This document shows, piece after piece, positions 6,572 to 55,462 of a stretch of DNA of 64,000 nt. The stretch covers positions 4,878,927-4,942,926 of the forward strand of contig OY763426.1 in NCBI GenBank assembly GCA_963667495.1. Direction: 5' to 3'. The stretch is from Candidatus Binatia bacterium. Lineage in GTDB: Bacteria; Desulfobacterota; Binatia; Bin18. The translations under genes were made by a program, and so were the position numbers. How positions within the stretch are numbered: the first letter of the stretch is position 1; every line of letters starts with the position of its first letter. The notes beneath the pieces are model-generated. The model was not told where the DNA came from. It made no database searches and worked only from the letters and a program-made list of their open reading frames with translations.

Positions 6572-7044
6572 GCTGTGACAATTTTCACGGGGGAAGTTTC
6601 CCCCACGCCCCCTCGGACCAGGGTAAAAGTCGGCACATAGCGTTCGTCCCCCTCGGGGTCCCGCCCGACCGCAGACGGGCAGAGGCGGACAGTGCATCCC
6701 CGCTCAACCTGGGTAGGCTCCGTTTCAACTAGTCGCGTGAAGATGCGCAGCCCTTCGACCAAGACTACGGCAAAAATCAACGGACGCGGAAAGCCCGGCG
6801 GGACGCCGGCATCTTGGATGGTATAGGCGTGGATCGCCCCCCGGCTCGGCAGTTCAACCCAGTCGAGCCGATCCGAGAGACATTCCGGACAGACTACACG
6901 CGGTGGCCAGTGGCGCAGGGCACACGGCGGACAAAATGTTGTGAGCAGCTTTTGCGATCGCAGGGCTTCGTAAAACGGAGCCAGTCGGGTGTTCTGACTG
7001 CCCTGGAGTGGAAAGGGATCGACGGCGCGGAAATACTCGCTCAT
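6568..7044 (-). CDS. DUF35 OB-fold / C4 zinc-ribbon protein (thiolase partner, BbsA/ChsH2-C-like)
   Basis: CPPC...CPEC zinc ribbon followed by an OB-fold region. It sits directly downstream of the thiolase with a GGGAG SD. Confidence 0.7.
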   Translation of the reverse strand: MSEYFRAVDPFPLQGSQNTRLAPFYEALRSQKLLTTFCPPCALRHWPPRVVCPECLSDRLDWVELPSRGAIHAYTIQDAGVPPGFPRPLIFAVVLVEGLRIFTRLVETEPTQVERGCTVRLCPSAVGRDPEGDERYVPTFTLVRGGVGETSPVKIVTA

Positions 7045-10225: not shown

Positions 10226-10717
10226 CTATTCCGTCTGCGTCATCTGATCAGGAGGGACAGAAACGACGTCTTCAGAGGGCTTATGAAAAGTTTCCGCTAC
10301 GTCAAAGGAACCGCGCAGTGAATACACGTCATCTTTGAACATGGGTAAGTGAGAATAGTAGGCACGATGGTAATAGCAGCCCAGGCCCTCACCCGGCGCT
10401 GCGGTTTCCTCCTCGACAATAGTGTCGGAAATTGTAGCGCTTCCGCTCTCTATCGAGGGGGGTGTCTTGACTGACGCGATATCAGGCTGTGCAGCCTGTT
10501 CAGCGTGACTTTTTTCAGTCAGCGTATCAGCATCATCCTTCCGGGTCGGTGTCGGCGGTCGGTGAGACGGATTTTCAAATTTGTCGAGCCAGCCGTAATA
10601 CGCGGAAGCCTTGGGTGCCGTTGGTTGCGGCTCTCCTTCTGCCCGGAGATCGCTGGCGATCAACACAATGCCAAGACTCAGAACGATAGTCAGGATGTGT
10701 TTCATACTGAAGCCCAT
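10226..10717 (-). CDS. Small secreted hypothetical protein sharing a motif with the adjacent DUF1329
   Basis: Signal peptide MKHILTIVLSLGIVLIASDLRA. The C-terminal GCYYHRAYYSHLPMFKDDVY parallels GTFYHKAYHSQMAMFPDNNY in the DUF1329 protein. Confidence 0.45.
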   Translation of the reverse strand: MGFSMKHILTIVLSLGIVLIASDLRAEGEPQPTAPKASAYYGWLDKFENPSHRPPTPTRKDDADTLTEKSHAEQAAQPDIASVKTPPSIESGSATISDTIVEEETAAPGEGLGCYYHRAYYSHLPMFKDDVYSLRGSFDVAETFHKPSEDVVSVPPDQMTQTE

Positions 10718-32909: not shown

Positions 32910-35552
32910 TCAGGCAGTACCGGTTTTCTCTATCAACTGCTGGTATACGTCCCGGTCGTTGAGTAGTTTTTCAACAACGAGGAAAAGGCCCCTGCCGTTG
33001 CTTTTTTGTTGCCATAATTCGCCGATGGTCCGTTTCTCTGCGGTATCCGCTCCATCAGCGATATGCGCCCCCTTATATTCGACAACGAGCAGCCGCCCAT
33101 CGTTCAACATCGCCACAAAGTCGGGGTAAAACTTATCCGTGGCGGTCGGTAGCCAGAATGATTCCGTGTGGCGGGCCACATTGCGAACCCAGTATTTCAC
33201 GCCAGGCAGACTGTCGAGAGCCTGAGCGCAACGCACTTCCTCGCCATCGTCTGCGCCGTCAAAGGCCGGAACGTGGTCCGCGCCTAAAAAGTGCTTCCCC
33301 GGCTTCCAACGCCCCCGGTATCGCCGCTGATCCTGATACATCCCAGCCTTGAATGAGAAGGCAGCGTCGAAGGATATTGCGACTTTTGCTTCGGGCGTAA
33401 AAAGACGCTGCTGATAGGCGCTCTTCCGTTCTTGCCGACGAATAGTGTTGATCTTGTCGCGTATCTTTCGCGCCAGGATAAACTTGCACCGCATGAGCGC
33501 GGCAATATGAATACCCCGTCCGATCATCAGGTGGTTGACGAGGTCGGAAAGCCACCTGAGCCGTTCGCTCTGCCTTATATCGTCCTGACGCACCTGCCGG
33601 TCGAGCCACAGGACCAGGGCTTCAGGCGTCCAGCCTTTCACGTCTATATTCAGCGTGCGTTGTTCTTTCTCGCTGGCGAACCGATAGGTGACGTGCCTGC
33701 CGTCAATGTCGATCTCAAAGCTGCGCGCGGTCTCACGGATCGTAAATTCCCCTTCGTCCATTTGCGGCGCATGGGTGAGCAGCGACCATTCGTGGGACTC
33801 CATGAACACGTCAGTATCGGCAAACTCAAGCTCCCCCTGGAGTTCTGACATAAGACGCGGCACATCGAATTGCTCGCCACATTCGGCAGGCGAGAGACGG
33901 TTGTGCATCAGCTTCCGATATTCCCCGAAGGACTCGTCAATCCGCCCGTGTTCCACCTCTGGAACCGCCTCACGGATGACCTTTTCCAAGGCGTCGTCCA
34001 CAGGGCCAACAATCTCGATCTCAACCGTCCCACTGCCGGTAGCGCGTACCGTCAAACCGTCTCGTTGAGTCTGCTTCAAAGCCGATAGCATCTCCGGTGT
34101 CGCTGTGAACGTATGCCGGAAGACGGGCTGGGAATTATCGCGCGGACCGAAAAGATCATCCTTGCCGCCCAACTCTCTCTGCATCGGCTCGATGTTGTCG
34201 TGTGCCTCGTCCTCCTCGAACCCCATCGCCACGAGCTTATCGGTCAATGCCCGCGCGGATGCCCCCGAGGACGGCTCGGACAGATAGGCATATGCCTGGT
34301 TCAAATCAGCAGCTCTGCGCCGCTTAGCGTAGGGCATGCGCAGCACCCGGCCCAATAGCTGTTCCACATCCGTCGCGCTGTGAATACGCGAGACCGAGCA
34401 AAATACATAGGCGAAGGAACAGTCCCAGCCCTCTTTCAGGGCTTCGACTGTGATGACGTATTCAATCGGACAACGCGGGTCGAACAGATCGATACCGTCC
34501 AATTCGCGCTGGTCGCCGGTGGCGATGGCAATCGCGTGGTCGGGAATGTGCTCGACATCCATCAGATGTTTTTTCAGCGCTTCGACAGTGATTTCCTGGT
34601 TCTTCTTCTGAGCCTGGAACAGGACGATAGGCCGGAGGTAGGCGGCGTCCCGTTTGGCAGCTTCAGCCAGAGACGCACGCTTAGCAATCGCACCGTTGAC
34701 TGCATTTTGCCAGGTATCGTGCTCGGACAGCATGATCGGCAGCTTGATCATATCCTCGCGTTTGAGTTCCAGGGCGGAGACGCTGTACAGGATATTCGAC
34801 TTGGGCCGGGGAGTGGCAGTGAACTCGATAATCGCGCACGGATTGACCCGCGTTTGCATCTCACGAGTCAGACCGGTCACCGCGTTGTGCGCCTCGTCCA
34901 CAATCATCAGCGGGAGGTGGATATGCAGCAGGTTAGCAAAGGAGAACTTGACGCCGCCACCCTCCATTTTCTCCAGACCCGGCGTAGCGTCTGGGACAGC
35001 GGAGAAATGCGGCTCCATTTCCTCGTGATGGGCATACACCTTGCGGCCTTCGGTGTTCGTCACCCGCAGCGTCTGAATGGTGCCGACCACAATACAGCAG
35101 TGGTCGCGCAGGTCGTGCGACCGAATGTGGGTGAAGTCGGCAATATCGAACACGCGTACCCGGCCATCAAAGCCTTCATCCAGCGCTTGCCGATACGGGT
35201 GGCCGGCGTTCTTCAAAGCCTCGACGGTTTGCGAGCGAATGGTCTTTGTCGGCACCAGCCACAGGACCAGCGGATAGTCTTTCTCTACCCAGGCGTCGCG
35301 CGCCACAGCAACGGCGTGAGCGCCCAATATCGTTTTGCCGCCACCGGTCGGCAGGCGCAGGCAGACGTACGGTACGTTCGGCAGGTCCGCGAGCGGAGCG
35401 CGATACGTTTCACCGTAGCGTCCGAGCCGGTCCGCATAGTCAGGTTCCTTGGTAATGGTTTCGTAGGCATTCTTCGGCCCGGCCATGCGGGCTTCTTCAA
35501 AGAAGCGGCGCAGAACGGCCAGCGCATCGGCCTGATATTGCTTCAGTTGCAC
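32910..35552 (-). CDS. res: Type III restriction-modification system restriction subunit (Res; SF2 helicase plus C-terminal PD-(D/E)XK)
   Basis: Walker A LPTGGGKT, DEAH-like MIVDEAHN, helicase C-terminal blocks, terminal FYPDFVAMLNDGRLLVVEYKG nuclease motif. GTG start. Confidence 0.8.
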   Translation of the reverse strand: MQLKQYQADALAVLRRFFEEARMAGPKNAYETITKEPDYADRLGRYGETYRAPLADLPNVPYVCLRLPTGGGKTILGAHAVAVARDAWVEKDYPLVLWLVPTKTIRSQTVEALKNAGHPYRQALDEGFDGRVRVFDIADFTHIRSHDLRDHCCIVVGTIQTLRVTNTEGRKVYAHHEEMEPHFSAVPDATPGLEKMEGGGVKFSFANLLHIHLPLMIVDEAHNAVTGLTREMQTRVNPCAIIEFTATPRPKSNILYSVSALELKREDMIKLPIMLSEHDTWQNAVNGAIAKRASLAEAAKRDAAYLRPIVLFQAQKKNQEITVEALKKHLMDVEHIPDHAIAIATGDQRELDGIDLFDPRCPIEYVITVEALKEGWDCSFAYVFCSVSRIHSATDVEQLLGRVLRMPYAKRRRAADLNQAYAYLSEPSSGASARALTDKLVAMGFEEDEAHDNIEPMQRELGGKDDLFGPRDNSQPVFRHTFTATPEMLSALKQTQRDGLTVRATGSGTVEIEIVGPVDDALEKVIREAVPEVEHGRIDESFGEYRKLMHNRLSPAECGEQFDVPRLMSELQGELEFADTDVFMESHEWSLLTHAPQMDEGEFTIRETARSFEIDIDGRHVTYRFASEKEQRTLNIDVKGWTPEALVLWLDRQVRQDDIRQSERLRWLSDLVNHLMIGRGIHIAALMRCKFILARKIRDKINTIRRQERKSAYQQRLFTPEAKVAISFDAAFSFKAGMYQDQRRYRGRWKPGKHFLGADHVPAFDGADDGEEVRCAQALDSLPGVKYWVRNVARHTESFWLPTATDKFYPDFVAMLNDGRLLVVEYKGAHIADGADTAEKRTIGELWQQKSNGRGLFLVVEKLLNDRDVYQQLIEKTGTA

Positions 35553-35578
35553 GACTCAGGCCCTCGCCTTAGGGGACT

Positions 35579-35776
35579 TCATATTTTCTTCGTACTTCCC
35601 GCCTCTCTCAGAATAGCGTTTGCCGTATGGCGGCTTTTCAAGTTGCGCGGAACCAGCAAAATCTTACCAGTTGTCAGGCTTTTCCACTTTTCGTGTGAAC
35701 CTTTTGCACTTTTCCAATACTCAAAATTAAGTTTTGAGATTTCTTTGGTGACCCTCTTGTAGAGACTGACCGCCAA
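35579..35776 (-). CDS. hicA: HicA-family toxin-like protein
   Basis: RVTKEISKLNFEYWKSAKGSHEKWKS...KILLVPRN...ANAILREAG matches the HicA consensus. The probable TTG start overlaps the stop of the upstream DUF1902 gene. Confidence 0.5.
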   Translation of the reverse strand: MAVSLYKRVTKEISKLNFEYWKSAKGSHEKWKSLTTGKILLVPRNLKSRHTANAILREAGSTKKI

Positions 35777-35777
35777 A

Positions 35778-36053
35778 TTATGCCACCGCCTTCTCAGTCT
35801 CCGGGCGCTGCCATACAATGGCCGGTATCAGTTCCTTGAGCGAATGCTCGGCAAGCTCGGAGGCGCTGCGATGATTCACCATGATGAGTTCAGGCGCTAC
35901 GTCCAGCATGATTGTTTCAAATTCATCCAGGGTAGCCGCCTCAATGTGCAAGCCCTCGATATCGCTTTCAGAGTAGAACACTTCTGCCTCAGCGTCCCAC
36001 ACAGCTTTCACTCGAAAGGTCTGCTGCATTCCGATATCCTCCCGTAGCGTCAT
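35778..36053 (-). CDS. DUF1902 / HicB-like antitoxin-type protein
   Basis: QQTFRVKAVWDAEAEVFYSESDIEGLHIEAATLDEFETIMLDVAPELI has the HicB-N/DUF1902 fold pattern. Sits between mod and res. Confidence 0.5.
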   Translation of the reverse strand: MTLREDIGMQQTFRVKAVWDAEAEVFYSESDIEGLHIEAATLDEFETIMLDVAPELIMVNHRSASELAEHSLKELIPAIVWQRPETEKAVA

Positions 36054-36067
36054 GATCCTTGGTCTTA

Positions 36068-36106
36068 TTCCCTCTCCCCTGGAGGGAGAGGGCTAGGGTG
36101 AGGGGG
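36068..36106. repeat. REP-like GC-rich palindromic element (CCCTCTCCCCTGGAGGGAGAGGG plus GGAGAGGGCTAGGGTGAGGGGG)
   Basis: Intergenic hairpin between mod and the DUF1902 gene. The 20-mer GGAGAGGGCTAGGGTGAGGG recurs (reverse-complemented) at about 41324-41343 and closely at about 59315-59333. Confidence 0.5.
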
Positions 36107-36130
36107 ATAAACACACTCAACCTCATCTCC

Positions 36131-37684
36131 TCACGTCCGGGCTTTCACCTCATACGGCATCTGCTTGAAGGTGACGCCAATCCTTTCCAAAGTCGCAGAG
36201 GCCAAGCGTGACTGTTCGCCATAGACCGTCAGCGGACCGTTGAAGCGCGCATGCTTGCGCTCAATCTCCTCCCGAATCATAGCAAGTGTGGCCCGCGTCA
36301 GCACATTACCACCATTCGGTCGCCTGTCGCCCAGGATGCCATTGTACAGCAGCGCATAGGCGTGGCTACCGTGCAGACCCAGGAAAGGTGAATCCCCACC
36401 TCCGTTCCACGGATGCCCGGTCTCGCTGAACCAGACATGGGCAGCCAGCACCGGAAAGCGGATGTCCGCTCGAATCTGCCCCGCCTCATCAAACACTGGT
36501 GGCCCGAGCCGGTAGAAACGAAACCCGCCCCCGCCCTGCCAACCCACACTTTTTGAGATGCCGCCCTGTTCGCCGTCAATAACCTTGCGCAAGCGGGGCA
36601 CGCAATGCGTCACTGCGTGCTCGCCCATCTCAATACCGATATAGCGCCGGCCCATCTTGTGGGCTACTGCCGCCGTGGTGCCGGAGCCGAGGAAGGAGTC
36701 GAGCACCAAGTCGCCGGGGTTGGTCGCTGCCTCAAAGATATATTCAATAAGACCTTCAGGCTTAGGAAAGGCGAATTTGTTCTGCAAGCCGAATAGCTCC
36801 ATACTTTGATACGTTCCGTGCTGCGTATAATGTCTCTCGATTATGGTTTGCGGCTTGCGTTTCCTTTCTTCGCCTCCCTCATCTTTGAGGTATTGCTTGT
36901 AAGAAACGACCGTTTTCCCTTTTCTTTTGGAAATCACCAACTCCCCGTCTACAAGCGCCCGATGGGAACGTTCTTTTGACCATTGCCACTGCTTTTCCGG
37001 CCAAATCTCTTCGCCGTTCTCAAGTGTAATCGGGTATCTAAGATTCGGACGATCATCCATGCTCGTAGTTGCCAACGGCTGCAAACGATACGGCCCTCTC
37101 TCCGCGAATTTTTCATCCTGATATTTGTAATACTTTCTCACGACATCGGGATCAGGAGGCAAGAACATCTCGGGGAATTTGCTCATGTCTTTTGTGTAAC
37201 AGAGGACTTCTTCGTGTAGGCCCACAAACCACTTCGCTTTGGCACCGCCACCGTAGCTTTTCTTCCAAATGAATGTGGTCAAGAAGTTTGACCTTCCGAA
37301 CACCTCGTCCATGATGACCTTGAGGTAGTGGGCTTCATTGTCGTCAATCGACACCCAGATTGACCCGTCTTCGGCCAGCAAGTCACGCAGGAGTTCGAGG
37401 CGCGGCCACATCATCGCCAGCCATTGTGTATGTTCGAGATTGTCGTCGTAATGCTCGAAGGCTGAGTGCGTGTTATACGGCGGGTCAATATAGATGCACT
37501 TCACCCGTCCGGCGTAGAACGGCAGCAACGCCTTGAGCGCTTCCAGGTTGTCACCCTGAATCAGCATGTTGCCCGTGTCCGGCTCCCCTGCCGACAGGTC
37601 AGGCGCTTCTTCCAACAGCCGATACGGCACGCGAGAGGCGGTGCGGAGGTCTTCGTCTCGGGTGAGCCAGTGGAGGATGGGCAT
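36131..37684 (-). CDS. mod: Type III R-M system DNA methyltransferase (Mod, N6-adenine)
   Basis: DPPY motif (CIYIDPPYNT). SAM-binding motif I region (the FxGSGTT-type motif) is present (VLDSFLGSGTTAAVAHKMG). The ATG overlaps the stop of the upstream pentapeptide-repeat gene. Confidence 0.85.
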   Translation of the reverse strand: MPILHWLTRDEDLRTASRVPYRLLEEAPDLSAGEPDTGNMLIQGDNLEALKALLPFYAGRVKCIYIDPPYNTHSAFEHYDDNLEHTQWLAMMWPRLELLRDLLAEDGSIWVSIDDNEAHYLKVIMDEVFGRSNFLTTFIWKKSYGGGAKAKWFVGLHEEVLCYTKDMSKFPEMFLPPDPDVVRKYYKYQDEKFAERGPYRLQPLATTSMDDRPNLRYPITLENGEEIWPEKQWQWSKERSHRALVDGELVISKRKGKTVVSYKQYLKDEGGEERKRKPQTIIERHYTQHGTYQSMELFGLQNKFAFPKPEGLIEYIFEAATNPGDLVLDSFLGSGTTAAVAHKMGRRYIGIEMGEHAVTHCVPRLRKVIDGEQGGISKSVGWQGGGGFRFYRLGPPVFDEAGQIRADIRFPVLAAHVWFSETGHPWNGGGDSPFLGLHGSHAYALLYNGILGDRRPNGGNVLTRATLAMIREEIERKHARFNGPLTVYGEQSRLASATLERIGVTFKQMPYEVKART

Positions 37685-39048
37685 CAGTTATCGCTCTCCT
37701 CGGGAACCTCTGACATGGCTTCGTTGTACTCGGCAATCCACTGTTCGGCTTCTTCGGCGGTGTAGGTTCCGGTAATGGCCCTACTATTTCCTGGCAGTTC
37801 ATTACTGGCTGGCTGGTCAATGTTCGGTGTCAGCCTTTCTCGAAACTGTTTTACTGCTCCATGGGGCAAACCTTCGACAAGGGAATCCAAGTGTCCTTGA
37901 CTCAGTCCGCCGGCGAAAATCGCTCCACTCAGATCGCTCTCTTTACCAATCTTCTCATTTATACGGTTTTCAAATGAATAGAAAATTTCCCTTTGGCTGG
38001 TGACCCCTTGTAGCTGGACTTCCCCAAGCGTAGCCGCTTGCAACTCTACTCCGGTAAGATCAGCCCCTTGAAATTGTGCCCCGCTAAGATGAGAGCCTTG
38101 CATCCGTGCATCACCAAGCATAGCTCCTTGGAACTGTGCAAAATGGAGAAGGGACCCTTGAAAATTTGCACCGGCAAGAAAGGCTCCCTGGAAACGTGCT
38201 TCGTTGAGAATAGCTCCTTGCAAATGCACCTCGTGGAGACTCGCCCCTTGGAAGTATGATCCACGGAGGTAAGCCACTTGTAATTGTGTCTCGTAGAGGC
38301 GAGATCTCTGCAACTGAGCCCCATCAAGGTCGGCTCCTGCCATCAGAGCCCATCTAAGATTAGCACTCTGTAGATATGCCTTGATTAGGTTGGCCTTTTC
38401 TAAACGCGCTCTCGGAAGATTAGCTCCATTCAGCCAGCTCTCCTGCAAATTGACATGAAGTCTGTTGAAGACTTCGTGCTCCTGTACGAACAGCAGGGTC
38501 AGCAGGCTTTGAATTTCCTCCGAAGGTTTCGACTTATACTTTTCTCTGTATTTGCTTTCACCCGTTGTCTGGCGGATATGGGCACAGAGAATATCCAGTA
38601 CGGTCTGACGTAGCTCTTTCGTATCTTCCGCCAGGTGGAACAGTTCGTAAGCCCCACCCAAACGTACAGAATCCGACTCATGCCCCAAGTGCTCAATGGC
38701 GTTTTTCAGGCGTTCCTGCCTCTGCCCCTGTTCGGTGTTCTGGTTAGCTTTCGCCTGTTCCTCCGCCGCGTTTTCCATGGCTTTGGCGCGTTTATTAGCA
38801 ATGACAGCCTGAATGGCGAGAATGACGCCACCCATGCTAATCCCCAGAAATTTTAGAGCCTCGTTTTTTTCGGATGCCCCTAAAATCTGAACAACATATT
38901 TCTCAGCACTTTCGCAGGACATGACCAACACAAAAGCGCTCAGCAATACGACAAGCACAATGCCGGAAAGGCCGATCAGAACGGTTGAAACCGGGTTCGT
39001 CTTGAACGCTGGGCCAAGACGACTCAGTAGACTTGAGAGAAGACTCAT
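37684..39048 (-). CDS. Membrane-anchored pentapeptide-repeat protein (paralog 1)
   Basis: Two N-terminal TM helices, a HEAT-like helical region, about 20 consecutive pentapeptide repeats (ANLxxAxLxxAxLxGAxL...), and an acidic C-tail ITGTYTAEEAEQWIAEYNEAMSEVPEESDN. Start at MSLLSSLL chosen by alignment with paralog 2 and the ATGA overlap with the upstream gene. Confidence 0.7.
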   Translation of the reverse strand: MSLLSSLLSRLGPAFKTNPVSTVLIGLSGIVLVVLLSAFVLVMSCESAEKYVVQILGASEKNEALKFLGISMGGVILAIQAVIANKRAKAMENAAEEQAKANQNTEQGQRQERLKNAIEHLGHESDSVRLGGAYELFHLAEDTKELRQTVLDILCAHIRQTTGESKYREKYKSKPSEEIQSLLTLLFVQEHEVFNRLHVNLQESWLNGANLPRARLEKANLIKAYLQSANLRWALMAGADLDGAQLQRSRLYETQLQVAYLRGSYFQGASLHEVHLQGAILNEARFQGAFLAGANFQGSLLHFAQFQGAMLGDARMQGSHLSGAQFQGADLTGVELQAATLGEVQLQGVTSQREIFYSFENRINEKIGKESDLSGAIFAGGLSQGHLDSLVEGLPHGAVKQFRERLTPNIDQPASNELPGNSRAITGTYTAEEAEQWIAEYNEAMSEVPEESDN

Positions 39049-39851
39049 CGTTTCACAACCTGCCTCAATAATTCCAGAGCGGATTCCGACTCCAACCAGT
39101 ACTTGCCGAACAATTTCCAATACGCATAGGCTTGGTCGGCTCCTCCGTGAGAAATATAGCCTTCGATCTGGGATTTCGGCCTGGGATGTCTCTTTTTCAA
39201 CAGCTCCCTGCCGACCAAGGGCAGCTCAGCAACACAATGCTCCAGCGCCGTCCGCGCCTCCTCGTCGCGTCCAAGACGCGCAAGCGCTAACGCCTCCGAA
39301 TAGAGGGTTTCGGGAGCAATGTCGTCCCGATACTTCCGGCAATGCGTAACAATTCTCGCTGGTGCGTTTTTTTCAAACCAACATTTCGGCAGCAGATACC
39401 TCACTCCCTGATTGTCGTTTGGGTTCACAGACAAAAGCCGTCTAAAAATCTCGATGGCCTCATCGTACCTGGCGTTGTGGAGATTCCACACACCGAGGCT
39501 GTGGTAGGCTCTCAGGAAGGGACGATTCTCCAACCACAGCCACTCCAGCCTCGCGGTTTTCCAGCTAAATTTCTGGGGAAGCGCGTGCAGTCCGATACCG
39601 ACGGCGGCTTGACAACAAATGTACGCTTCCGTCTCCCTTCCCTGCTCGCGGTAGATCAGCGAGAGATGATGAATTGCGTCTATGTGACGAGGACATTCCG
39701 CTACGATGGACTGGAGCATTTTTTCCGCGACTTCATCGTGACCCTTCTCCCAAATATCCAAGGCTTGATCGAACCTTTCAAAAATCTCAGGAGTGAAGGT
39801 CGAATCCTCCTCGAAACCCCAGTTGTTTTTTTCCATCTCCACCAGTTTCAT
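39045..39851 (-). CDS. TPR-like helical-repeat protein
   Basis: 268 aa of alpha-helical repeat composition (AYHSLGVWNLHNARYDEAIEIFRRLLSVNPND). GGAGGA SD. Its stop overlaps the start of paralog 1. Confidence 0.55.
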   Translation of the reverse strand: MKLVEMEKNNWGFEEDSTFTPEIFERFDQALDIWEKGHDEVAEKMLQSIVAECPRHIDAIHHLSLIYREQGRETEAYICCQAAVGIGLHALPQKFSWKTARLEWLWLENRPFLRAYHSLGVWNLHNARYDEAIEIFRRLLSVNPNDNQGVRYLLPKCWFEKNAPARIVTHCRKYRDDIAPETLYSEALALARLGRDEEARTALEHCVAELPLVGRELLKKRHPRPKSQIEGYISHGGADQAYAYWKLFGKYWLESESALELLRQVVKR

Positions 39852-39926
39852 AATGTTTTTCCTCCAGGATACACGGGCGACAGTGGACGAGGGATTCGTT
39901 TGGGGTAAATCAGTGTCGGGGGAGCA

Positions 39927-41288
39927 TCAGTTATCAAGCTCTGTCGGAACCTCTGACATGGCTTTTTTGTATTCGGCAATCCACTGTTCGGCTTCTTCTG
40001 CGGTGTAGGCTCCCGTAATGGCGAGGCTGTTTTCTGGTAGTTCACGAATTGCCGGCTTACCAATGTGAGGCTTCAGCTTCTCTCGCAATTCTTTCGCCTT
40101 CTCATCGGGCAAACATCCGGTAAAGGAATCCAGGTCTTCCTGGCTCAACTCTCCCTCAAAAATAATCCCGTTGAGGTCACTTCCTACGCCAACTCTGTTT
40201 TTCATTAGCTCTTCAAACGGAGGTAAAAGCCCTCCGCTTACGCTGCTGATGACCCCTTGCATCTTTGTCCCGTGTAGAACGGCCCCTTGCATCTTTGCCG
40301 CGCCCAAACTAGCCCCTTGCATCTCTGCCGCGCGCAGATAAGACCCCTGTAGTCGTGCAAGGCGCAGATCGGCCCCTTGCATCTTTACTCCCGAAAGATT
40401 CGCCTCTTGTAGGCGTGCTAGGCTCAGATCAGCCCCTTGCAGGCCCGCCATGACAAGATCAGTCTCCTGTAGCTGTGCTCCACCAAGCCTAGCCCCTTGT
40501 AGACGCGTCCAGGAAAGCTCGGCTCCTTGAAGGTTCGCCTCACGAAGATTAGCCATTTGCAGATGCGTATCGCTAAGGTCAGCCTTTTGTAGAGACGACT
40601 CGCTGAGATCAACCCCTTCTAACCACGCACCGGCCATAAAGGCGTTCTCTAAACGTGCCCCCCTGAGATTGGCCATGTCCAGCCAACTCCCCTGCAAGTT
40701 AATATGCAGCCCTTTGAAGACGTTATGCTCCTGTACGAACAACAAGGTAAGTAGGCTTTGAATTTCTTCCGAAGGTTTTGACTGATACTTTTCTCTGTAT
40801 TTGCTTTCACCCGTCGTCCGTCGGATATGAGAGCATAGGATGTCCAAGACCGTCTTGCGCAACTCTTTGGTATCTTGTGCCAGATGGAACAGTTCGTAAG
40901 CTCCACCAAGGCGCACGGAGGCATTGTCATGTCCCAGGTGCTCGACGGCGTTTTTCAGGCGTTCCTGCCGCTGGCCTTGCTCGGTATTCTGGTTGGCTTT
41001 TACCTGTTCTTCCGTGGCCTTGGCTTGGGCCTTTGCGGCCTCAGCCTGCGCGTTCGCGGTGTCCTCCAGCGCTTTGGCACGTTTGTAGGACATCAAGGCT
41101 TGCAAGGCGAGCAGGACGCCGCCCATGCCGATGCCGAGAAATTTCAGGATTGAGTTTTTTGTGTGTAAGCCTAAGCGTTCCCCTACCCACCCCTCACAGG
41201 TCTCACAGAACACGACGGACGAGAAGAGCGTCACCAACATGACGAGTAGGCCGACAAGGCTGTACTGGAAAATGAGAAAAAGACTCAT
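39927..41288 (-). CDS. Membrane-anchored pentapeptide-repeat protein (paralog 2)
   Basis: Same architecture as 37684..39048. The coiled-coil (NQNTEQGQRQERLKNA.EHLGH), HEAT-like and C-tail regions are near-identical to paralog 1. Confidence 0.7.
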   Translation of the reverse strand: MSLFLIFQYSLVGLLVMLVTLFSSVVFCETCEGWVGERLGLHTKNSILKFLGIGMGGVLLALQALMSYKRAKALEDTANAQAEAAKAQAKATEEQVKANQNTEQGQRQERLKNAVEHLGHDNASVRLGGAYELFHLAQDTKELRKTVLDILCSHIRRTTGESKYREKYQSKPSEEIQSLLTLLFVQEHNVFKGLHINLQGSWLDMANLRGARLENAFMAGAWLEGVDLSESSLQKADLSDTHLQMANLREANLQGAELSWTRLQGARLGGAQLQETDLVMAGLQGADLSLARLQEANLSGVKMQGADLRLARLQGSYLRAAEMQGASLGAAKMQGAVLHGTKMQGVISSVSGGLLPPFEELMKNRVGVGSDLNGIIFEGELSQEDLDSFTGCLPDEKAKELREKLKPHIGKPAIRELPENSLAITGAYTAEEAEQWIAEYKKAMSEVPTELDN

Positions 41289-41337
41289 CGCAGAGCACTG
41301 ACTATGAACTTATCTCACAATGACCCCTCACCCTAGC

Positions 41338-42567
41338 CCTCTCCCCCCAGGGGCTCAGGTCCCGACAGTTTTGGGTAAGATGGGGAGATGGGGGATGAAG
41401 GCGAAGTCGGCGGCTAAGGGGCGGTCAAGGGCGAGCCAGCGCGTGAAGAGGCGCAAGCCGAGTTGGAGGACGCTATGGCGCCAGCGTTTGCCGTACGTCA
41501 CTTCCCGGCGCAGGCGGGGGTGGCGAATGACCTGCGTGCCCACACTACTCATCCAGGCGGAGGCCAAGGCCAAGACGAGCCACAAGCGATTGGCGTGGGC
41601 GGGCGAGCGAATCTGGGAGCGGTGCCACTGCCAGCCGCCCGATTTCAAGTCCCGAAACGCGGCCTCTTCCCACATCCGCAGCCCATACCAGTTCGCCTGC
41701 GCCTGGGACCAATTGGTCAACAACAGCCAGGGCTGGGCATAGCGGCCTTGCCAGCGGCCCACGGCCCAACACGGGCGCCAGCCCCGTTTCTTGAACGCCC
41801 GCACCGCTCCCGCCCAGCGGGCGCCAGGTTTAGGGACCAGCGTCCCAAAGGCCACCTCTCGGCCTGCCACCTGAAGGCGGACCGTCCGCTGCACCCGGAC
41901 CAAGAAGAACCAGCCCAGCGCCTCAATGGCCGCCAGCAAGTCCGGGCTACAGCCAATCCCCCGGTCGGCTTGGACCAAGACCGGGCAGCCCGCCGGGACA
42001 TGCGGCGCGACTTGGTGCAGCAAGGTGCGAATCAAGGCCACTTGGCCCATCGGCCACGCCGTCTGGCGATAACACCACCACGCCAGCGGCAGGGCGCGCC
42101 CACGATAAGCCAGACTGACGACCATGACCTTGAGATGCGCTTGGAGACTGGTCTCATCGACCAGCAGCACGAGCGGGCCGGGGGAGTGGAGCCGGCGCAG
42201 AATCCAGGCCGTCAAGCCCTGCGCCCCGACGCGCCAATCGAGCCGCGGATTGGCCACAAACCGTTGGAGGCGGCGCTCCACCGTGTCCGGCTTGCCCAAG
42301 GTGGGCAGCGCTTCGGCTACCCCGCGTTGCGAACACCGCCGGGCGACCGCTACTCCCCAGCTAAAGGCTGCCCAGACTTTGGCCTGCGACTTGCGCACCT
42401 GGGGAATCTGGCGTGCAACCGTGTCCATCCACTGATATACTGCGCGCTGTTGACTCATGGGGACCTCCCGGGACCGTGGACTTGTGAGATGGCCCACCAT
42501 GCCCCGGCCAACCCGCATGAGTCAACGCTCACAAACTGTCGGGTCTTCAGCCCCCAAGGGGGAGGGA
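41338..42567 (-). mobile_element. IS element (DDE transposase, IS4/IS5-superfamily-like), about 1.2 kb, with imperfect terminal inverted repeats
   Basis: Terminal IRs GGGGCTCAGGTCCCGACAGTTT (about 41350-41371) and CAAACTGTCGGGTCTTCAGCCCCC (about 42532-42555). The transposase ORF ends inside the IR. The flanks look like two halves of a CCCTCTCCCC...GGGGGAGGG hairpin. Confidence 0.6.
41355..42458 (-). CDS. IS-element DDE transposase
   Basis: LVLLVDETSL (D1 region), LVQADRGIG (D2), WEEAAFRDLK (the Y-x2-R-x3-E-x6-K-like block of DDE_Tnp_1). Start at MSQQRAVYQW, or possibly the upstream M at 42518. Confidence 0.7.
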   Translation of the reverse strand: MSQQRAVYQWMDTVARQIPQVRKSQAKVWAAFSWGVAVARRCSQRGVAEALPTLGKPDTVERRLQRFVANPRLDWRVGAQGLTAWILRRLHSPGPLVLLVDETSLQAHLKVMVVSLAYRGRALPLAWWCYRQTAWPMGQVALIRTLLHQVAPHVPAGCPVLVQADRGIGCSPDLLAAIEALGWFFLVRVQRTVRLQVAGREVAFGTLVPKPGARWAGAVRAFKKRGWRPCWAVGRWQGRYAQPWLLLTNWSQAQANWYGLRMWEEAAFRDLKSGGWQWHRSQIRSPAHANRLWLVLALASAWMSSVGTQVIRHPRLRREVTYGKRWRHSVLQLGLRLFTRWLALDRPLAADFAFIPHLPILPKTVGT

Positions 42568-49555: not shown

Positions 49556-49807
49556 ATGAATGAGGCAAAGCTGCTCGAACGTATTACTATCAATCCGAAA
49601 ATCTTCGGCGGTAAGCCTACTGTCCGAGGACGAAGACTCGCAGTCGAGCATGTTCTTGGTATGCTGGCAGCGGGAGATACAGCCGAGACCATACTTTCAG
49701 GCTATGCTTGGCTTGAGCCGGAAGACATCCAGGCTTGCCTGCTCTATGCGCGGCAGCTTGTTGGTCATGAACGCGTCGGGCCATTCTTTGTTAAGCCCCC
49801 CGCCTGA
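49556..49807 (+). CDS. DUF433 domain protein (antitoxin-like)
   Basis: ITINPKIFGGKPTVRGRRLAVEHVLGMLAAGDTAETILSGYAWLEPEDIQACLLYA matches the DUF433 consensus. Confidence 0.65.
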   Translation: MNEAKLLERITINPKIFGGKPTVRGRRLAVEHVLGMLAAGDTAETILSGYAWLEPEDIQACLLYARQLVGHERVGPFFVKPPA

Positions 49808-50166
49808 GGCTTCTGCTTGATAGCTATGTCTGGGGCGGAGTCCGCCAGGATATAAGAACCGCTGGCCATGATGTCCCGTGGGCGGGCGAGTGGGATGAAG
49901 ACCCCGGCGATGAAGAAATTCTCAGGCGAGCTTTCCGTGACAGTCGTATCCCCGTGACCTTAGATAAGGACTTTGGCGAACTTGTTATCGTCCGCGGCCA
50001 ACGCCATGCAGGCATTCTTCGCCTCGTCAATCTCTCAGCACGTCAACAAGCAGATGTCTGCATTCAAGTCCTCACCACGCATGGTACGGATTTGGAAGCT
50101 GGAGCGATCATTACCGCCGAGCCCGGCAGATTACGCATTCGCCCGGCGTCGGCCACTTCTTCATAG
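49804..50166 (+). CDS. DUF5615 family PIN-like protein (toxin-like partner of DUF433). The start codon is non-canonical or degraded.
   Basis: Frame-continuous LLLDSYVWGGVRQDIRTAGHDVPWAGEWDEDPGDEEILRRAFRDSRIPVTLDKDFGELV... matches DUF5615. There is no in-frame ATG. A CTG overlapping the DUF433 TGA is the only candidate start. Confidence 0.45.
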   Translation: MRLLLDSYVWGGVRQDIRTAGHDVPWAGEWDEDPGDEEILRRAFRDSRIPVTLDKDFGELVIVRGQRHAGILRLVNLSARQQADVCIQVLTTHGTDLEAGAIITAEPGRLRIRPASATSS

Positions 50167-50363: not shown

Positions 50364-51401
50364 ATGCCACACCGCTTTATGACCTTGCGCGAAATTCGCC
50401 GCGCCGCAAAAACCATGCTGCCGCCCGGACCGTGGGCGTTTGGCGCTGGGGGCGCGGAAACGGAAACCACGCGCCGTCGCAACCGCCGGGCGCTCAAGCG
50501 TCTGGCTATCCGCCAGCGGGTGCTGCGCGATGTCCGCCATATCGATATCAGCACGACCTTTCTGGGCCTCGAACTCCCTACTCCCTTTGCCATCGCGCCG
50601 ATGGGCGGTCTGGTCCTCTTTCATCCGGAAGGCGACCTCGAAATGGTGCGCGGAGCAAGCCCCAGCCACAACCTCGCCTTTGTGAGCGGGGTCACCGGTT
50701 GGCCGGTCGAAGACCTGGCTCAGGCCGCCCGCGGCCCCTTGATATATCAGCTCTACTGGAGCGGCCCCCGTTCCTGGTGCCAGGATTTGCTCGCCCGGGT
50801 GGAAGCCTCGGGCTATCACGCTGTCTGCCTGACGGTTGACGTACAGACCTATAGCCGCCGTGAACGGGACGTTGAACTGCGTTTTGATCCGCAGCGGGCA
50901 CGGGCAATCGCCCCCAACGAACAGCCGCCTGAGTTCGACTATCAGACCCGTCTGACCTGGGACGATGTGGCTTGGCTCAAGAGTATTCTGTCGGTTCCGC
51001 TGGGCTTAAAGGGCATTCTCACTCCGGAAGACGCCAAGCTGGCCGTTGAGGTCGGAGCCGAGATCATTTGGGTCTCGAACCACGGCGGCCGCCAGCTCGA
51101 TTCCACCCTGGCAACGATTGATGCCTTGCCGGACATCGTCGAGGCGGTTGAGGGTAAAGCCCAGATCGTGATTGATGGCGGCTTCCGGCGGGGCACGGAC
51201 ATCATTAAAGCCCTGGCCTTAGGCGCAAACCTGGTTGCCATGGGTCGGCCTATGCTGTGGGGTTTGGCCGCGGACGGCGCGGCCGGAGTGCACCGGACAA
51301 TTGAACTATTCCGTGACGAGTTGGAAACCAACCTGGCCTTATGCGGACAAACCAGCGTACGCAGGCTGGAGCCGAATCTGGTTCGCCCGGTGGAGTATTA
51401 A
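50364..51401 (+). CDS. FMN-dependent alpha-hydroxy-acid dehydrogenase (LldD/glycolate oxidase family)
   Basis: AIAPMGG..., SNHGGRQLD (FMN/active-site region), GGFRRGTD, C-terminal glycine-rich loop. Full family layout. Confidence 0.8.
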   Translation: MPHRFMTLREIRRAAKTMLPPGPWAFGAGGAETETTRRRNRRALKRLAIRQRVLRDVRHIDISTTFLGLELPTPFAIAPMGGLVLFHPEGDLEMVRGASPSHNLAFVSGVTGWPVEDLAQAARGPLIYQLYWSGPRSWCQDLLARVEASGYHAVCLTVDVQTYSRRERDVELRFDPQRARAIAPNEQPPEFDYQTRLTWDDVAWLKSILSVPLGLKGILTPEDAKLAVEVGAEIIWVSNHGGRQLDSTLATIDALPDIVEAVEGKAQIVIDGGFRRGTDIIKALALGANLVAMGRPMLWGLAADGAAGVHRTIELFRDELETNLALCGQTSVRRLEPNLVRPVEY

Positions 51402-51461
51402 GCCAGCGGCTTCCATCGAAAAGAGGCGCATAGCCAGGATGAATCACCAACAGGAGGACGC

Positions 51462-52544
51462 ATGCAGTTTGGCATTATCTTTCCTACCCGCATCGATGAC
51501 TGGCAACTGGTGAAAGACGCCGAGGACCTGGGCTATGACCGCGCCTGGATACCGGACTCCCAGATGATCTGGTCGGACTGTTATGCCACCCTGGCTCTGG
51601 CCGCGCATAACACCTCGCGGATTCATATTGGCAGCGGAGTCTCGATTCCCGGCAGCCGCATTGCTCCGGTCACGGCCCATTCCATTGCCTCAATCAATCA
51701 GATTGCACCGGGTCGCGTCTTCCTCGGCCTCGGCACCGGGCATACTGCTATGCGCGTCATGGGTATGAGGCCCATGCGCATCAAACCCTTCCGCGAGTAC
51801 CTGCGCGTTGTGCGTGCGCTCCTGCACGGGGAAGAGGTTGACTACACCTTTGATGACACCACGCGCACGATTCGCTTTCTCCACCGGGACCTGCGCTTTA
51901 TCAACCTGGAAGACCCCATTCCGATTTATATTGCCGCCAACGGACCGCGGGCACTTGGCCTCACGGGTGAATTCGGGGACGGTCTCACGACCCTACTCTA
52001 CGAAGATACCAGCGTCCTGCGCGATCATTTGGAGTTGATCCGGGCAGGAGCGGCCAAAGCCGGGCGCAACCTGCCGGACCCCTTTCATGTTTCTGCCGTC
52101 ACCGCCGCCGTCATTCTGCGTCCGGGCGAGACATTGGAATCGGACCGGATCATCGACGCCTGCGGTGCCTGGGTCACCACGGCGCTCCATTTTGTGTATG
52201 AGGTCTATCAGTTGACCAAGAATGAGGAAGTCATTCCGCCGGCGTTTGCGGATACCTGGGAGGAGTATTGTGCCCATGTCGATCAGATGGAGACGCCGGC
52301 CGACAAACGCTATCTCCAACTTCACGACGGCCACAGCACCTACCTGGTGCCGGCCGAGCGGCGTTTTGTAACCCCCAAGGCGATTCAGGGTACGAGTCTG
52401 GTGGGTACGCCGGAGGAGATTATTGAACGCATCCGCGCGGCAGAGCAAGCGGGCATGCGCGAGCTAACCATCCTGCCTCCGACCCAGACAAACCGGGAGA
52501 TGCTGACGGAGTTTGCCGAGTTGGTGATGCGCAAGGTAAAATAA
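51462..52544 (+). CDS. Luciferase-like monooxygenase (LLM class F420-dependent-type oxidoreductase)
   Basis: MQFGIIFPT...AEDLGYDRAWIPDSQ...LGLGTGH LLM blocks. Confidence 0.8.
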   Translation: MQFGIIFPTRIDDWQLVKDAEDLGYDRAWIPDSQMIWSDCYATLALAAHNTSRIHIGSGVSIPGSRIAPVTAHSIASINQIAPGRVFLGLGTGHTAMRVMGMRPMRIKPFREYLRVVRALLHGEEVDYTFDDTTRTIRFLHRDLRFINLEDPIPIYIAANGPRALGLTGEFGDGLTTLLYEDTSVLRDHLELIRAGAAKAGRNLPDPFHVSAVTAAVILRPGETLESDRIIDACGAWVTTALHFVYEVYQLTKNEEVIPPAFADTWEEYCAHVDQMETPADKRYLQLHDGHSTYLVPAERRFVTPKAIQGTSLVGTPEEIIERIRAAEQAGMRELTILPPTQTNREMLTEFAELVMRKVK

Positions 52545-52616
52545 TAAACTGGGCAGCGTGGGCTGTACGATTGTGCCGTTCGGGAGGGAAACATCTACAT
52601 CTGCCGAAAAATTTAA

Positions 52617-53219
52617 TTGGATTTCAGAGTCATGAAAATGAAAGAAAGAGAATGGGCAAGGAAAATTGCGGAACGCCTCGATAAGGAGATACAGGACTGT
52701 CGCGCTGAGCCTGAAAAAGATCTGATTTATGCAAGTGAAATTCTAAATCATGACGGAGATGAGCCTTTATACAACGAGCCTGCAACCTATACGACTGACA
52801 TTCTCATATATAAAAAATTAGAAGGCAAAAAATGGAAACCTAGGGTGGTCATCGAGACTAAACTAGGAAATGAAAAAGGTAGTGGAATTACGACACATGA
52901 TGCAATCACATATAGCCAGAAGTCATCTTCTCATAAAAACGTTTATCCATATTTGAGGTATGGGATATTCATCGGCAATAGAAAGCACCATCCGCTTCCG
53001 GGCCGCTTATTTAGACATGGGGCCAATTTTGACTTTATGCTTTCGTGGGAGGGATATCATCCAAAAGGGAAGGAATGGCAAATCTTGGTAGACATTCTTC
53101 ACAAAGAAATCAAGGCTTCTGAAAAACTAGAAGAGATGATATTCGAAAGCAGGAAGCGGCAAAGAAAAAAATACTTTGCTTTACACAGACCACTCATTAC
53201 CAAGTTGATCGCAGAATAG
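52617..53219 (+). CDS. Hypothetical protein in an AT-rich islet, with a PD-(D/E)XK-like motif
   Basis: Codon usage is visibly AT-rich compared with the surroundings (runs of aaa/gaa/att). The TDILIYKK...PRVVIETKLG pattern (D...E-x-K) suggests a restriction-endonuclease-like fold. Confidence 0.45.
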   Translation: MDFRVMKMKEREWARKIAERLDKEIQDCRAEPEKDLIYASEILNHDGDEPLYNEPATYTTDILIYKKLEGKKWKPRVVIETKLGNEKGSGITTHDAITYSQKSSSHKNVYPYLRYGIFIGNRKHHPLPGRLFRHGANFDFMLSWEGYHPKGKEWQILVDILHKEIKASEKLEEMIFESRKRQRKKYFALHRPLITKLIAE

Positions 53220-53227
53220 AGAAAATC

Positions 53228-54370
53228 CTAACCCTCAAGCTGCTCATTCAGTCTGGCGATAGCTTCGACATAGCCCTCCACCATTTCCCGCACGACATCG
53301 CGGGTGGCCCGCACGCTGTTTTGCGTGCCGATGCCCTGCCCGACGGGATAGGAGTACAGCTGATAGGCGCCGGACTCCGGGGTCACGCCGGGGGCCTTCA
53401 TGGCGTGGTCGATGCGGCGCAGTGAAGAATAATTCAAAACGCTCTGGAGTGGGGTTTTGAGGGGCTCCGGGGTATCGGGCCGATCCCAGGCCTCGGTCCA
53501 TGCCGAGCGTAAAAACCGGGCGTGTTTGCCCGTCATGGATCGGGTTCGTACCGTGTCATCCGTCCCCGCGACCAGCATCTTTTGCTTGGCTATCCGGTCC
53601 AACTCGGACTCGGCCGTCGTCAGCCAGACAGAACCGCACCACACACCCTGGGCACCAAGCGCCATGGCAGCGGCCATCTGCCGCCCGCTGCCTATGCCGC
53701 CGGCGCCGAGCACCGGGGTCGGAGCAACGGCATCGACAATTTCCGGGATCAGCACCATGCCGCCAATCTCTCCGGTATGGCCTCCGGCTTCGTAGGACTG
53801 GGCAATAATCACGTCCACACCCGCGGCTTTGTGGCGCTCGGCGTGCTTTTTCTTGCCAGCCAAGGCCCCAACGTAGAGACCGCGCGCATGGGCCGCCTCA
53901 GTGACCCAATCCGGCGGCGTACCGAGCGCACTCACCAGAAACCTGGCCTTGTGGGCAAAGGCAATATCCACGATACCTTTGGCCTGTTTCTGGGAATAGC
54001 GTAAACCACGTTCCTTTTTGGAGGCGGTCAGATGATCCGGCAAATCGGGCACCCCTGCATCTTCTAGGAGTTTCTCCACGAACTGCCGATGCTCGTCCGG
54101 GATGTACTCCCGGAGCGCCTTTTGATCCATTCCGCCGGTTGCAGCACCAACGTAGTTTGACGGCATCATCAGGTCCACGCCATACGGGATATCGCCGAGT
54201 TGATCGTCTATCCATTGCAGGTCGATTTCCAGACGTTCGTCCGTGTGAATCGCGGCCCCCAGCACGCCGAGTCCGCCGGCCTTACTGACTGCAACGACCA
54301 CGTCGCGGCAGTGTGTGAAGGCAAAAATAGGATATTCGATACCAAACATGCCTGTGAGCGCCTGTGTCAT
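53228..54370 (-). CDS. Nitronate monooxygenase (NMO, 2-nitropropane dioxygenase / FabK-like FMN TIM-barrel) family protein
   Basis: GIEYPIFAFTHCRD..., GAGGIGSGRQ, AQSYEAGGHTG motifs. Confidence 0.8.
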   Translation of the reverse strand: MTQALTGMFGIEYPIFAFTHCRDVVVAVSKAGGLGVLGAAIHTDERLEIDLQWIDDQLGDIPYGVDLMMPSNYVGAATGGMDQKALREYIPDEHRQFVEKLLEDAGVPDLPDHLTASKKERGLRYSQKQAKGIVDIAFAHKARFLVSALGTPPDWVTEAAHARGLYVGALAGKKKHAERHKAAGVDVIIAQSYEAGGHTGEIGGMVLIPEIVDAVAPTPVLGAGGIGSGRQMAAAMALGAQGVWCGSVWLTTAESELDRIAKQKMLVAGTDDTVRTRSMTGKHARFLRSAWTEAWDRPDTPEPLKTPLQSVLNYSSLRRIDHAMKAPGVTPESGAYQLYSYPVGQGIGTQNSVRATRDVVREMVEGYVEAIARLNEQLEG

Positions 54371-54475
54371 ACTGGCTCCTCAATCTTCTTTCGACCGTAT
54401 ACAACCACGCTTGAGACAAAGAGGCTACAACCTCGGTACTAGGAGTAGAGAGAAGAGTGCGCTAATCACTCACTC

Positions 54476-55462
54476 ATGAGCAATCACATGAGCGGTCAGG
54501 CGATCAAACGCATTAGCGTCGTTGGCGCAGGCTTAATGGGCCATGGCATTGCACAGGAGTTTGCCTTGGCCGGCTACCACGTGACCATGCATGCGCGCAC
54601 CCAAGCCAGTCTGACCCGAGCGGAGGAAAATATCCAGGCCAATCTTGCCCGCTTGATCGCACTCGGCGCGCTGACTGAGGACCGAGCCAGGCCGGTCCTG
54701 TCCCATATTCGGGCCGAGCTTGACCTGAAAGGAGCGGTCGAGGATGCCGATCTTGTGATTGAGTCGGTGTTTGAAGAGAGAGAACTGAAGCGAGGCATCT
54801 TTGAGCAGCTTGACCGCCTTTGTCCTTCGCATACCATCCTGGCGAGCAATACCTCGACGCTCATGCCCAGCCAGTTCATGCATACCGTGCAGCGCGTCGA
54901 CAAGGTCTTAGTCGCGCACTATGCCAACCCCCCTTATCTCATTCCCATTGTTGAACTTGTACGTGGCCCGGCCACGTCAGATGAGACACTCGACACCCTG
55001 TCCGGATTACTCACGCGCGTGGGCAAACGACCCGTTGTCGTGCAAAAAGAAGTGCCTGGCTTTATTCTCAATCGTTTGCAGGGTGCGCTGCTGCGTGAAG
55101 CCCTTTCCATGGTGCAAAACGGTATTGCCAGCCCGCAGGATATTGATACGGCCATGAAGAACAGTATTGGCCGACGCTGGGCAGTTGCCGGGATTTTTGA
55201 AGTTTTTGAGCTGGCCGGCTGGGACTTGATCTCCGCCGCCATGCAAGGGCTGTATCCACATCTCACAACGTCGCAGAAGATTCCGCCGGTCCTATCCGCA
55301 AAAGTTGTCCAGGACGAGCTTGGGGTAAAAACAGGCAAAGGGTTCTATGACTGGACACCAGAGTCCGCTGACGTTCTACGCCAACGGATCGCTCACGCCT
55401 TGGTTGAAACGGAGAAGTGGACACAGCAAGCAGGGCAACAAGATCGGGCTAAACCGCATTGA
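54476..55462 (+). CDS. 3-hydroxyacyl-CoA dehydrogenase (Hbd/FadB C-terminal type)
   Basis: ISVVGAGLMGHGIAQ Rossmann motif. PGFILNRL, and the C-terminal dimerisation domain, match the 3-hydroxyacyl-CoA dehydrogenase family (the family motif is PGFxxNR). Confidence 0.85.
   Translation: MSNHMSGQAIKRISVVGAGLMGHGIAQEFALAGYHVTMHARTQASLTRAEENIQANLARLIALGALTEDRARPVLSHIRAELDLKGAVEDADLVIESVFEERELKRGIFEQLDRLCPSHTILASNTSTLMPSQFMHTVQRVDKVLVAHYANPPYLIPIVELVRGPATSDETLDTLSGLLTRVGKRPVVVQKEVPGFILNRLQGALLREALSMVQNGIASPQDIDTAMKNSIGRRWAVAGIFEVFELAGWDLISAAMQGLYPHLTTSQKIPPVLSAKVVQDELGVKTGKGFYDWTPESADVLRQRIAHALVETEKWTQQAGQQDRAKPH

Follow-up and report, generated by a model that had tools for sequence, protein, structure and literature searches.

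A solitary gene for a predicted PD-(D/E)XK nuclease forms an inserted AT-rich islet in a Candidatus Binatia genome

Restriction genes have been reported to insert without mobility genes, often at stop codons (Furuta et al., PMC2853133), and in the BisI family a PD-(D/E)XK catalytic domain of ~173 amino acids (aa), with no separate sensor, suffices for modification-dependent restriction (PMC11347163). NucC, the endonuclease of the cyclic-oligonucleotide-based antiphage signalling system (CBASS) and of type III CRISPR systems that is activated by cyclic tri-AMP (cA3), is characterized by an ID-x30-EAK motif, a homotrimer interface, a cA3 pocket (R53, Y81, and T226) and a gate loop derived from embellishments, and is encoded in CD-NTase or CRISPR operons (10.1101/694703). 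Here, we describe a predicted PD-(D/E)XK nuclease gene which stands alone in an AT-rich islet within 64 kb of DNA from a Candidatus Binatia bacterium (the whole stretch analysed, hereafter the window). It is read as a stand-alone restriction-like DNA nuclease cassette, which was acquired horizontally and does not need a dedicated methyltransferase, and we give this overall reading a probability of roughly 0.5. Two of its components, the restriction-endonuclease fold and the horizontal origin, are nearly certain.

The nuclease gene, situated at 52632..53219 on the plus strand, encodes a protein of 195 aa, as in the public gene calls (P0001). The initial annotation had described a product of 200 aa, and the corresponding open reading frame (ORF) does exist as the longest form in the ORF list (52617..53219, plus strand, TTG start). 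However, the biological start is probably ATG 52632 or ATG 52638, not TTG 52617; ATG 52638, which would give 193 aa, matches the family consensus N-terminus M-x-E-x-E-W. As had been described, the gene lies between a luciferase-like monooxygenase gene (51462..52544, plus strand; PF00296 in orthologues) and a convergent nitronate monooxygenase (NMO) gene (53228..54370, minus strand; PF03060 in orthologues). The 87-nt upstream spacer (52545..52631, plus strand) is part of the insert according to the alignments, while an 8-bp gap (53220..53227) between the nuclease stop and the convergent NMO stop forms the right-hand insert junction, as seen in the sequence and in the alignment of filled and empty sites. 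Neither the spacer nor the gap holds an ORF.

The composition of the gene, which had been estimated by eye as about 40% GC amid 60%, was computed as 0.398, compared with 0.59-0.60 in its flanks (0.59 over 5 kb on either side) and 0.573 for the whole window. No 603-bp segment of the 64 kb has a lower GC content than the ORF (z = -4.9), and just one further region, near 36.7 kb, falls below 0.48. The GC content of the ORF at third codon positions is 0.40, whereas the 44 long ORFs of the window average 0.66 (z = -3.8). As well, by a codon-adaptation index derived from the genes of the window itself, this gene ranks lowest among the 44 ORFs (0.56 vs. 0.70; z = -2.6), so that both calculations proposed by the initial annotation reveal a clear outlier. 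An amelioration test of the gene gave 17 versus 14, which are small counts.

The three closest homologues (79-85% aa identity) occupy the identical slot in loci L082, L084, and L085 of related genomes, and they are likewise AT-rich (0.41-0.42 vs. 0.59-0.60). Empty sites were sought by scanning for relatives of the NMO gene, which led to the identification of two. In L086, ~23 nt separate the two convergent stop codons, and the more distant L089 (~73% nt identity) is also empty. According to this comparison, the insert, which sits in the spacer between the two stops, is ~0.7 kb long in the window and ~0.8 kb long in L082 and L085. The islet is a true insertion, though not a recent one, and its presence and absence among relatives bear out the horizontal acquisition that had been suggested from composition. 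The upstream spacer occurs in two variants, ~90 nt long in the window and L084 and ~160 nt long in L082 and L085, and the latter two retain the old spacer left of the insert. Because the last codons of the monooxygenase differ between alleles, ending in RKVK-stop in the window and L084 and in RKY-stop in L082, L085, and the empty L086, the left junction must have been remodelled in the lineage of the window and L084.

The insert comes without an integrase, a transposase, a tRNA or a convincing flanking repeat, and the flanking-repeat search at this site returned short chance-level matches only. A 27-nt, 70% complementary inverted pair (52562-52588 and 53334-53360), which lies partly inside the NMO gene, was judged to be due to chance. 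In L082 and L085, the left junction bears CCTAG, which contains the complement of the NMO stop, and CTAC recurs at the right one (L082 ~9838-9870 and ~10585-10600, L085 likewise, compared with L086 6137-6173). These letters may reflect a 4-5-bp target duplication centred on CTAG, which is too short to be told from chance.

Across the four genomes with a filled site, the synonymous divergence (dS) of the nuclease gene is 0.25-0.45, compared with 0.20-0.51 for the flanking genes, while its ratio of nonsynonymous to synonymous divergence (dN/dS) is 0.16-0.31, compared with 0.04-0.13 for the flanks. Since its dS equals that of the flanks and its dN/dS remains this low, the gene has co-diverged with its surroundings under purifying selection. 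This selection is relaxed merely ~two- to three-fold relative to the flanks, which is not the mark of a decaying remnant. Many solitary restriction genes in databases are indeed fragments (PMC3488263), and the initial annotation had offered an orphan remnant as one option. However, an inactive remnant of a decayed restriction system is hardly credible here, being contradicted by the dN/dS over four co-diverged orthologues, by the full length and intact catalytic triad of the protein, and by a large family that is conserved across phyla.

The window and L086 are 98-100% identical at 47.6-50 kb and at 57-59.4 kb, and between these segments lies a tract of raised divergence, with 88-91% nt identity in its core (50900..54500, sliding-window identities), from which identity climbs back gradually to ~50.0 kb and ~56.9 kb. 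The core value equals the level between the window and other, more distant relatives. This divergence tract indicates that one lineage, either that of the window or that of L086, replaced a segment of ~5-6 kb including the site by recombination with a diverged relative. Within the tract, the window is slightly nearer to the filled L085 (~0.92-0.93) than L086 is (0.90), and the event may have run in either direction. The presence or absence of the islet is an allele which is exchanged by homologous recombination of the flanks.

A divergent flank tract of this kind resembles the co-conversion expected of a selfish homing-like endonuclease, by which empty sites would be cut and repair from the filled allele would copy the gene together with adjacent flank. 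The single-gene cassette without integrase or transposase, which lies exactly between two stops, would agree with such an element, as would the recurrence of single-gene islets in unrelated lineages and the stop-codon insertions without mobility genes known for restriction genes (PMC2853133). Nevertheless, ordinary homologous recombination of an accessory gene yields the same flank pattern, and the insertion sites of the family are wholly different between lineages, with no conserved target apparent. Moreover, the gene has been stably and vertically inherited, with dS equal to the flanks, and the family is all but missing from phages and plasmids, on which homing genes flourish. Homing is, therefore, considered improbable.

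The nuclease protein gave zero matches at E <= 10 in Pfam, NCBIfam, and PADLOC, and only two chance-level matches (E 0.12 and 1.3) in PHROGs. PDB sequence searches, with the single sequence and the family profile alike, returned nothing meaningful, and a query for the genomic context of the exact protein gave no record. Shedu (DUF4263), Card1/Can2, Hjc, and NucS, which the initial annotation had named as candidates, received no profile match, and no housekeeping family was matched either. The proposed PD-(D/E)XK identity itself is well founded. The protein has the core alpha-beta-beta-beta-alpha-beta fold of the superfamily, in which an acidic residue opens the second core strand and a (D/E)-x-K motif stands in the third. 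In the segment TDILIYKK...KPRVVIETKLG, present as it had been quoted, the D...E-x-K arrangement corresponds to D56, E75, and K77 (195-aa numbering), with a D-to-E spacing of 18 residues. This catalytic triad is invariant across 41 family sequences, and its residues are retained in 91, 90, and 87 of 93 diverse representatives, respectively. Judging from the alignments, the nuclease is full length and its conserved, predicted metal-binding triad is intact. Other near-invariant blocks of the family are H89-D-A-I-T-Y94, K97, H101-K102, R109-Y-G, H129-G, and F133-D-F. When the 93 members were scanned singly at a permissive threshold, the recurrent weak Pfam matches were all to PD-(D/E)XK nuclease families, including HSDR_N_2 in six members and TnsA_N in two, followed by UPF0102, HSDR_N, and XhoI. 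Foldseek gave only weak matches in the PDB (best E 9e-3), and among viral structures it retrieved uncharacterised phage proteins as well as generic PD-(D/E)XK entries. The structurally nearest proteins are Type II enzymes of the NgoMIV/Cfr10I/BsaWI/AgeI group, and the protein is closer to the NgoMIV/NucC branch than to the PvuII/BisI branch.

The family has 1,616 matches in a collection of 5.8 billion proteins, and an exhaustive hidden Markov model search found 660 clusters at 50% identity. Nearly all members are single-domain proteins of 180-200 aa (typically ~190 aa), and one of them is named 'Restriction endonuclease' in UniRef. Their hosts include Proteobacteria, Bacteroidota, Planctomycetota, Nitrospirota, Chloroflexota, Firmicutes, others, and one archaeal bin; the distribution is patchy over phyla, and the cross-phylum identity is unusually high (50-65%). 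Rare members carry an extra domain of ~75 aa, either an N-terminal DUF7669 (P0129 and P0170) or a C-terminal DUF7662 (P0138), on which a literature search found no paper. The family is nearly all chromosomal, with a single occurrence among 72,556 plasmid records, four among 2.9 million IMG/VR contigs, and none among 50,697 phage records. The GC content of the family gene follows that of the host with a slope of 0.62. In most hosts above ~0.52 GC it lies 9-19 points below the flanks, and the low-GC segment there (0.4-1.6 kb) is one gene long, with neighbours at host composition. Single-gene foreign islets are, therefore, typical of the family at large and not peculiar to the window.

Such a distribution bears on whether the protein could be a domesticated DNA repair or recombination nuclease, structure- or mismatch-specific like Hjc, RecU, NucS, Vsr, or MutH, which would bring a housekeeping-type benefit. 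The gene is present or absent between near-identical genomes, its family is patchy over phyla and of foreign composition in GC-rich hosts, no repair family is matched in sequence, and members are enriched beside restriction-modification (R-M) and other defence genes. All of these observations speak against a repair function, which we regard as unlikely, if somewhat less so than homing.

A census of neighbours covered 78 loci from species-representative genomes, with 145 adjacent genes, counting ORFs of 70 aa or more. No neighbour is conserved in the 78 loci, and the largest neighbour cluster comprises six. The commonest Pfam families among the adjacent genes are housekeeping ones, which are common to related genomes, followed by DNA methyltransferases (three of the C5 type and three of the N4/N6 type). 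The latter are enriched at the adjacent position (6 of 143 ORFs vs. 6 of 762 at distances 2-10) and adjoin the family gene in 6 of 78 loci, leaving 72 with none adjacent. At the second-neighbour position, scattered Type I, II, and III components, Hhe, mad2, and the PADLOC candidates PDC-S01, S14, S31, and S37 were found. The association with defence islands is genuine yet moderate, since the genes that adjoin most of the loci are ordinary ones.

A DUF4357 protein is encoded near the nuclease gene in two unrelated loci, a Desulforapulum plasmid (L001, 5849-6736 and 11935-12483, in a block duplicated on the plasmid) and a Caldicoprobacterales contig (L068, 7192-7797). The copy at 5849-6736 of the plasmid matches the PADLOC candidate defence family PDC-S14 (E 3e-104), and an unannotated 279-aa ORF lies between the DUF4357 gene and the nuclease gene on the same plasmid.

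The methyltransferases raise the question of a solitary Type II endonuclease that relies on a cognate methyltransferase from a distant locus of the same genome. Such separated pairs are documented (PMC3488263), the fold is nearest to the Type II group of NgoMIV, Cfr10I, BsaWI, and AgeI, methyltransferases are enriched beside family members, and the UniRef name of one member points the same way. In L042 and L069, a same-strand C5 methyltransferase is adjacent with no other recognised nuclease found, and a pairing may hold at these two loci. However, the adjacent enzyme is a Type III Mod with its own Res in L064, is paired with an NgoBV-family nuclease in L066, and overlaps an unassigned 377-aa ORF in L032. 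Since the methyltransferase has its own partner, the family gene in L064 and L066, and probably in L032, neighbours a complete R-M system and is not its nuclease; the candidate role as R subunit of the adjacent methyltransferase was accordingly rejected for the first two loci and is doubtful for the third. The adjacent methyltransferases also differ in chemistry, 72 of 78 loci have none, and linkage of the R and M genes is the rule for the great majority of known systems (PMC3488263). The islet itself holds no methyltransferase, as linkage to a Type II R subunit would demand. The nearest methyltransferase in the window, at 36-37.7 kb, was also rejected as the cognate enzyme, being a Type III Mod beside its own Res, 15 kb off. 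On balance, a separated Type II pair is unlikely, though the least so among the rival explanations.

The same census bears on a latent toxin or abortive-infection effector, which could be a signal-gated non-specific nuclease like NucC or the toxin of a toxin-antitoxin pair that has gone unrecognised, with RNA as a possible target. Among the 145 + 130 neighbours, neither cyclase nor CRISPR families occur repeatedly, and none stands beside the nuclease gene in the window. Likewise, there is no conserved small partner gene of the toxin-antitoxin kind, as no cluster exceeds 6 of 78 loci, so that no conserved neighbour offers itself as antitoxin, cyclase or sensor, and the upstream spacer holds no ORF. 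The D-to-E spacing is 18 against 30 in NucC, the protein is ~45 residues shorter, which leaves no room for the NucC embellishments, and PADLOC gave zero matches to NucC or other effectors. Hence, an effector of this type, which the initial annotation had listed as a toxin, seems more improbable than homing.

According to our favoured explanation, an ancestor of the host group gained horizontally a cassette of ~0.7 kb (0.7-0.8 kb in relatives), which was inserted, as one gene with no mobility genes, in the short spacer between the stops of two convergent metabolic genes. The gene product is predicted to be a functional, single-domain metal-dependent nuclease with a PD-(D/E)XK fold and the putative active site D56/E75-x-K77. 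The gene has since been inherited with its flanks under purifying selection and swapped as an allele by flank recombination. It may act as a lone Mg2+-dependent restriction-like DNA endonuclease, possibly with cleavage restricted to modified or otherwise non-self DNA, as with the BisI-type single-domain enzymes. Expression would be held low by the AT-rich and poorly adapted codons of the gene. Promoter and terminator scans around the gene found sites no commoner than in shuffled sequence, Rfam gave nothing significant, and no convincing promoter or RNA element was seen in the upstream spacer. The gene may, therefore, have its own weak promoter or be expressed by read-through from the same-strand monooxygenase gene, and low expression of a potentially harmful enzyme would fit both the poorly adapted codons and the lack of a strong promoter.

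Host sparing without methylation is considered likelier than a separated Type II pair because 92% of the members are unlinked. A classical Type II enzyme would be expected to poison a cell that lacks the matching methyltransferase, and R and M genes are seldom found unlinked (PMC3488263; PMC4176335). The DNA substrate, the way in which self DNA is spared, and the role in defence are inferred from these observations. The weak link of the overall reading is the defence mechanism. Regarding the defence function put forward in the initial annotation, a restriction-type nuclease is supported, while the role in defence is a putative one. A more tentative extension, which we hold to be rather doubtful, is that the family represents an unrecognised cross-phylum class of minimal stand-alone restriction-fold nucleases. 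Carried as naked single-gene cassettes, they would act on foreign DNA without a methyltransferase, through a modification or non-self sensor built into an NgoMIV/NucC-like scaffold or through a new self-sparing principle. The site of discrimination would be made up of the additional invariant His, Arg, Tyr, and Asp residues.

If active, the protein would be a compact nuclease of ~190 aa from an uncatalogued family of at least 660 clusters, which defence-system finders and Pfam miss. It would also be a candidate for a new single-gene restriction activity, possibly modification-dependent, and so of potential use as a reagent. The locus offers a clear-cut natural case of a precise inter-stop insertion which is retained under selection while compositionally foreign, and the islet shows the passage of a lone nuclease gene between close relatives by flank recombination. 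If the protein is an ordinary orphan restriction enzyme, the finding would be routine.

Several other features were observed around the islet and in its relatives. A second contig (L083, 26.6 kb) from the L082 sample carries the same locus with an identical nuclease gene and fragmented flanking genes (NMO of 192 aa; a split xanthine-dehydrogenase-family gene), so that it represents a degraded variant of the strain or else a haplotig of lower quality. Clusters of the flanking genes comprise 166-258 near-identical sequences drawn from many assemblies, indicating that the host group is well sampled in public metagenomes. Next to the NMO gene, a 3-hydroxyacyl-CoA dehydrogenase gene (54476-55462) occurs in the window, L085, and L086 but not in L082 and L084, so that a second gene within 2 kb of the islet varies in presence among relatives. 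In addition, a toxin-antitoxin-like small pair (49556-50166) coincides with a local GC dip just upstream of a flavin mononucleotide (FMN)-dependent dehydrogenase gene. It comprises a DUF433-type ORF (49556-49807) and a DUF5615-type ORF ending at 50166, both assigned from L085 orthologues. L082 and L084 carry different small genes at this spot, which is thus also variable between relatives. Finally, a lower-GC island (0.47-0.55) on the minus strand at 32910-42518 contains the second-lowest GC segment of the window. This island encodes the Type III Res (PF04851, 32910-35552) and Mod (PF01555, DPPY motif, 36131-37684), two pentapeptide-repeat proteins (37684-39120 and 39927-41288), a tetratricopeptide-repeat protein (39045-39851), and a DDE transposase (41355-42518).

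Compared with the NgoMIV/Cfr10I/Bse634I/BsaWI/AgeI/SgrAI group, the nuclease protein shows 10-15% identity in structural alignments and no sequence similarity, and it is ~90 residues shorter. Unlike that group, its family has no linked methyltransferase in 72 of 78 loci and is far more conserved over phyla than is usual there. It is also set apart from NucC by the x18 instead of x30 spacing, by its length (195 aa vs. 241 aa), and by the lack of any PADLOC, Pfam, or PDB sequence match, and neither a CD-NTase operon nor a type III CRISPR operon surrounds the gene. With the Type IV or modification-dependent enzymes, such as Mrr, MspJI, and BisI, it shares the stand-alone gene. However, with no profile match it falls outside the known modification-dependent families, which carry Mrr_cat, an SRA/EVE/wH sensor domain, or a BisI/PvuII-like core. 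Like the BisI/GlaI type, the family appears to work without a methyltransferase partner or a separate modification-sensor domain, and this type is the closest precedent for a host-safe lone nuclease of ~190 aa.

The insertion mode resembles the cases of Furuta et al. (PMC2853133), although no long target duplication is found at this locus. Similar to the solitary restriction genes catalogued by Ershova et al. (2012) and Oliveira et al. (2014), the nuclease gene is chromosomal and has no linked methyltransferase, and it was apparently acquired as a solitary gene and not left by the decay of a full system (PMC3488263; PMC4176335). Those catalogues, however, rest on REBASE and profile matches, and the present family would go uncounted in them because no such profile matches it. 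Taken together, the nuclease gene belongs to an uncatalogued family within the PD-(D/E)XK superfamily, which behaves like the solitary restriction genes.
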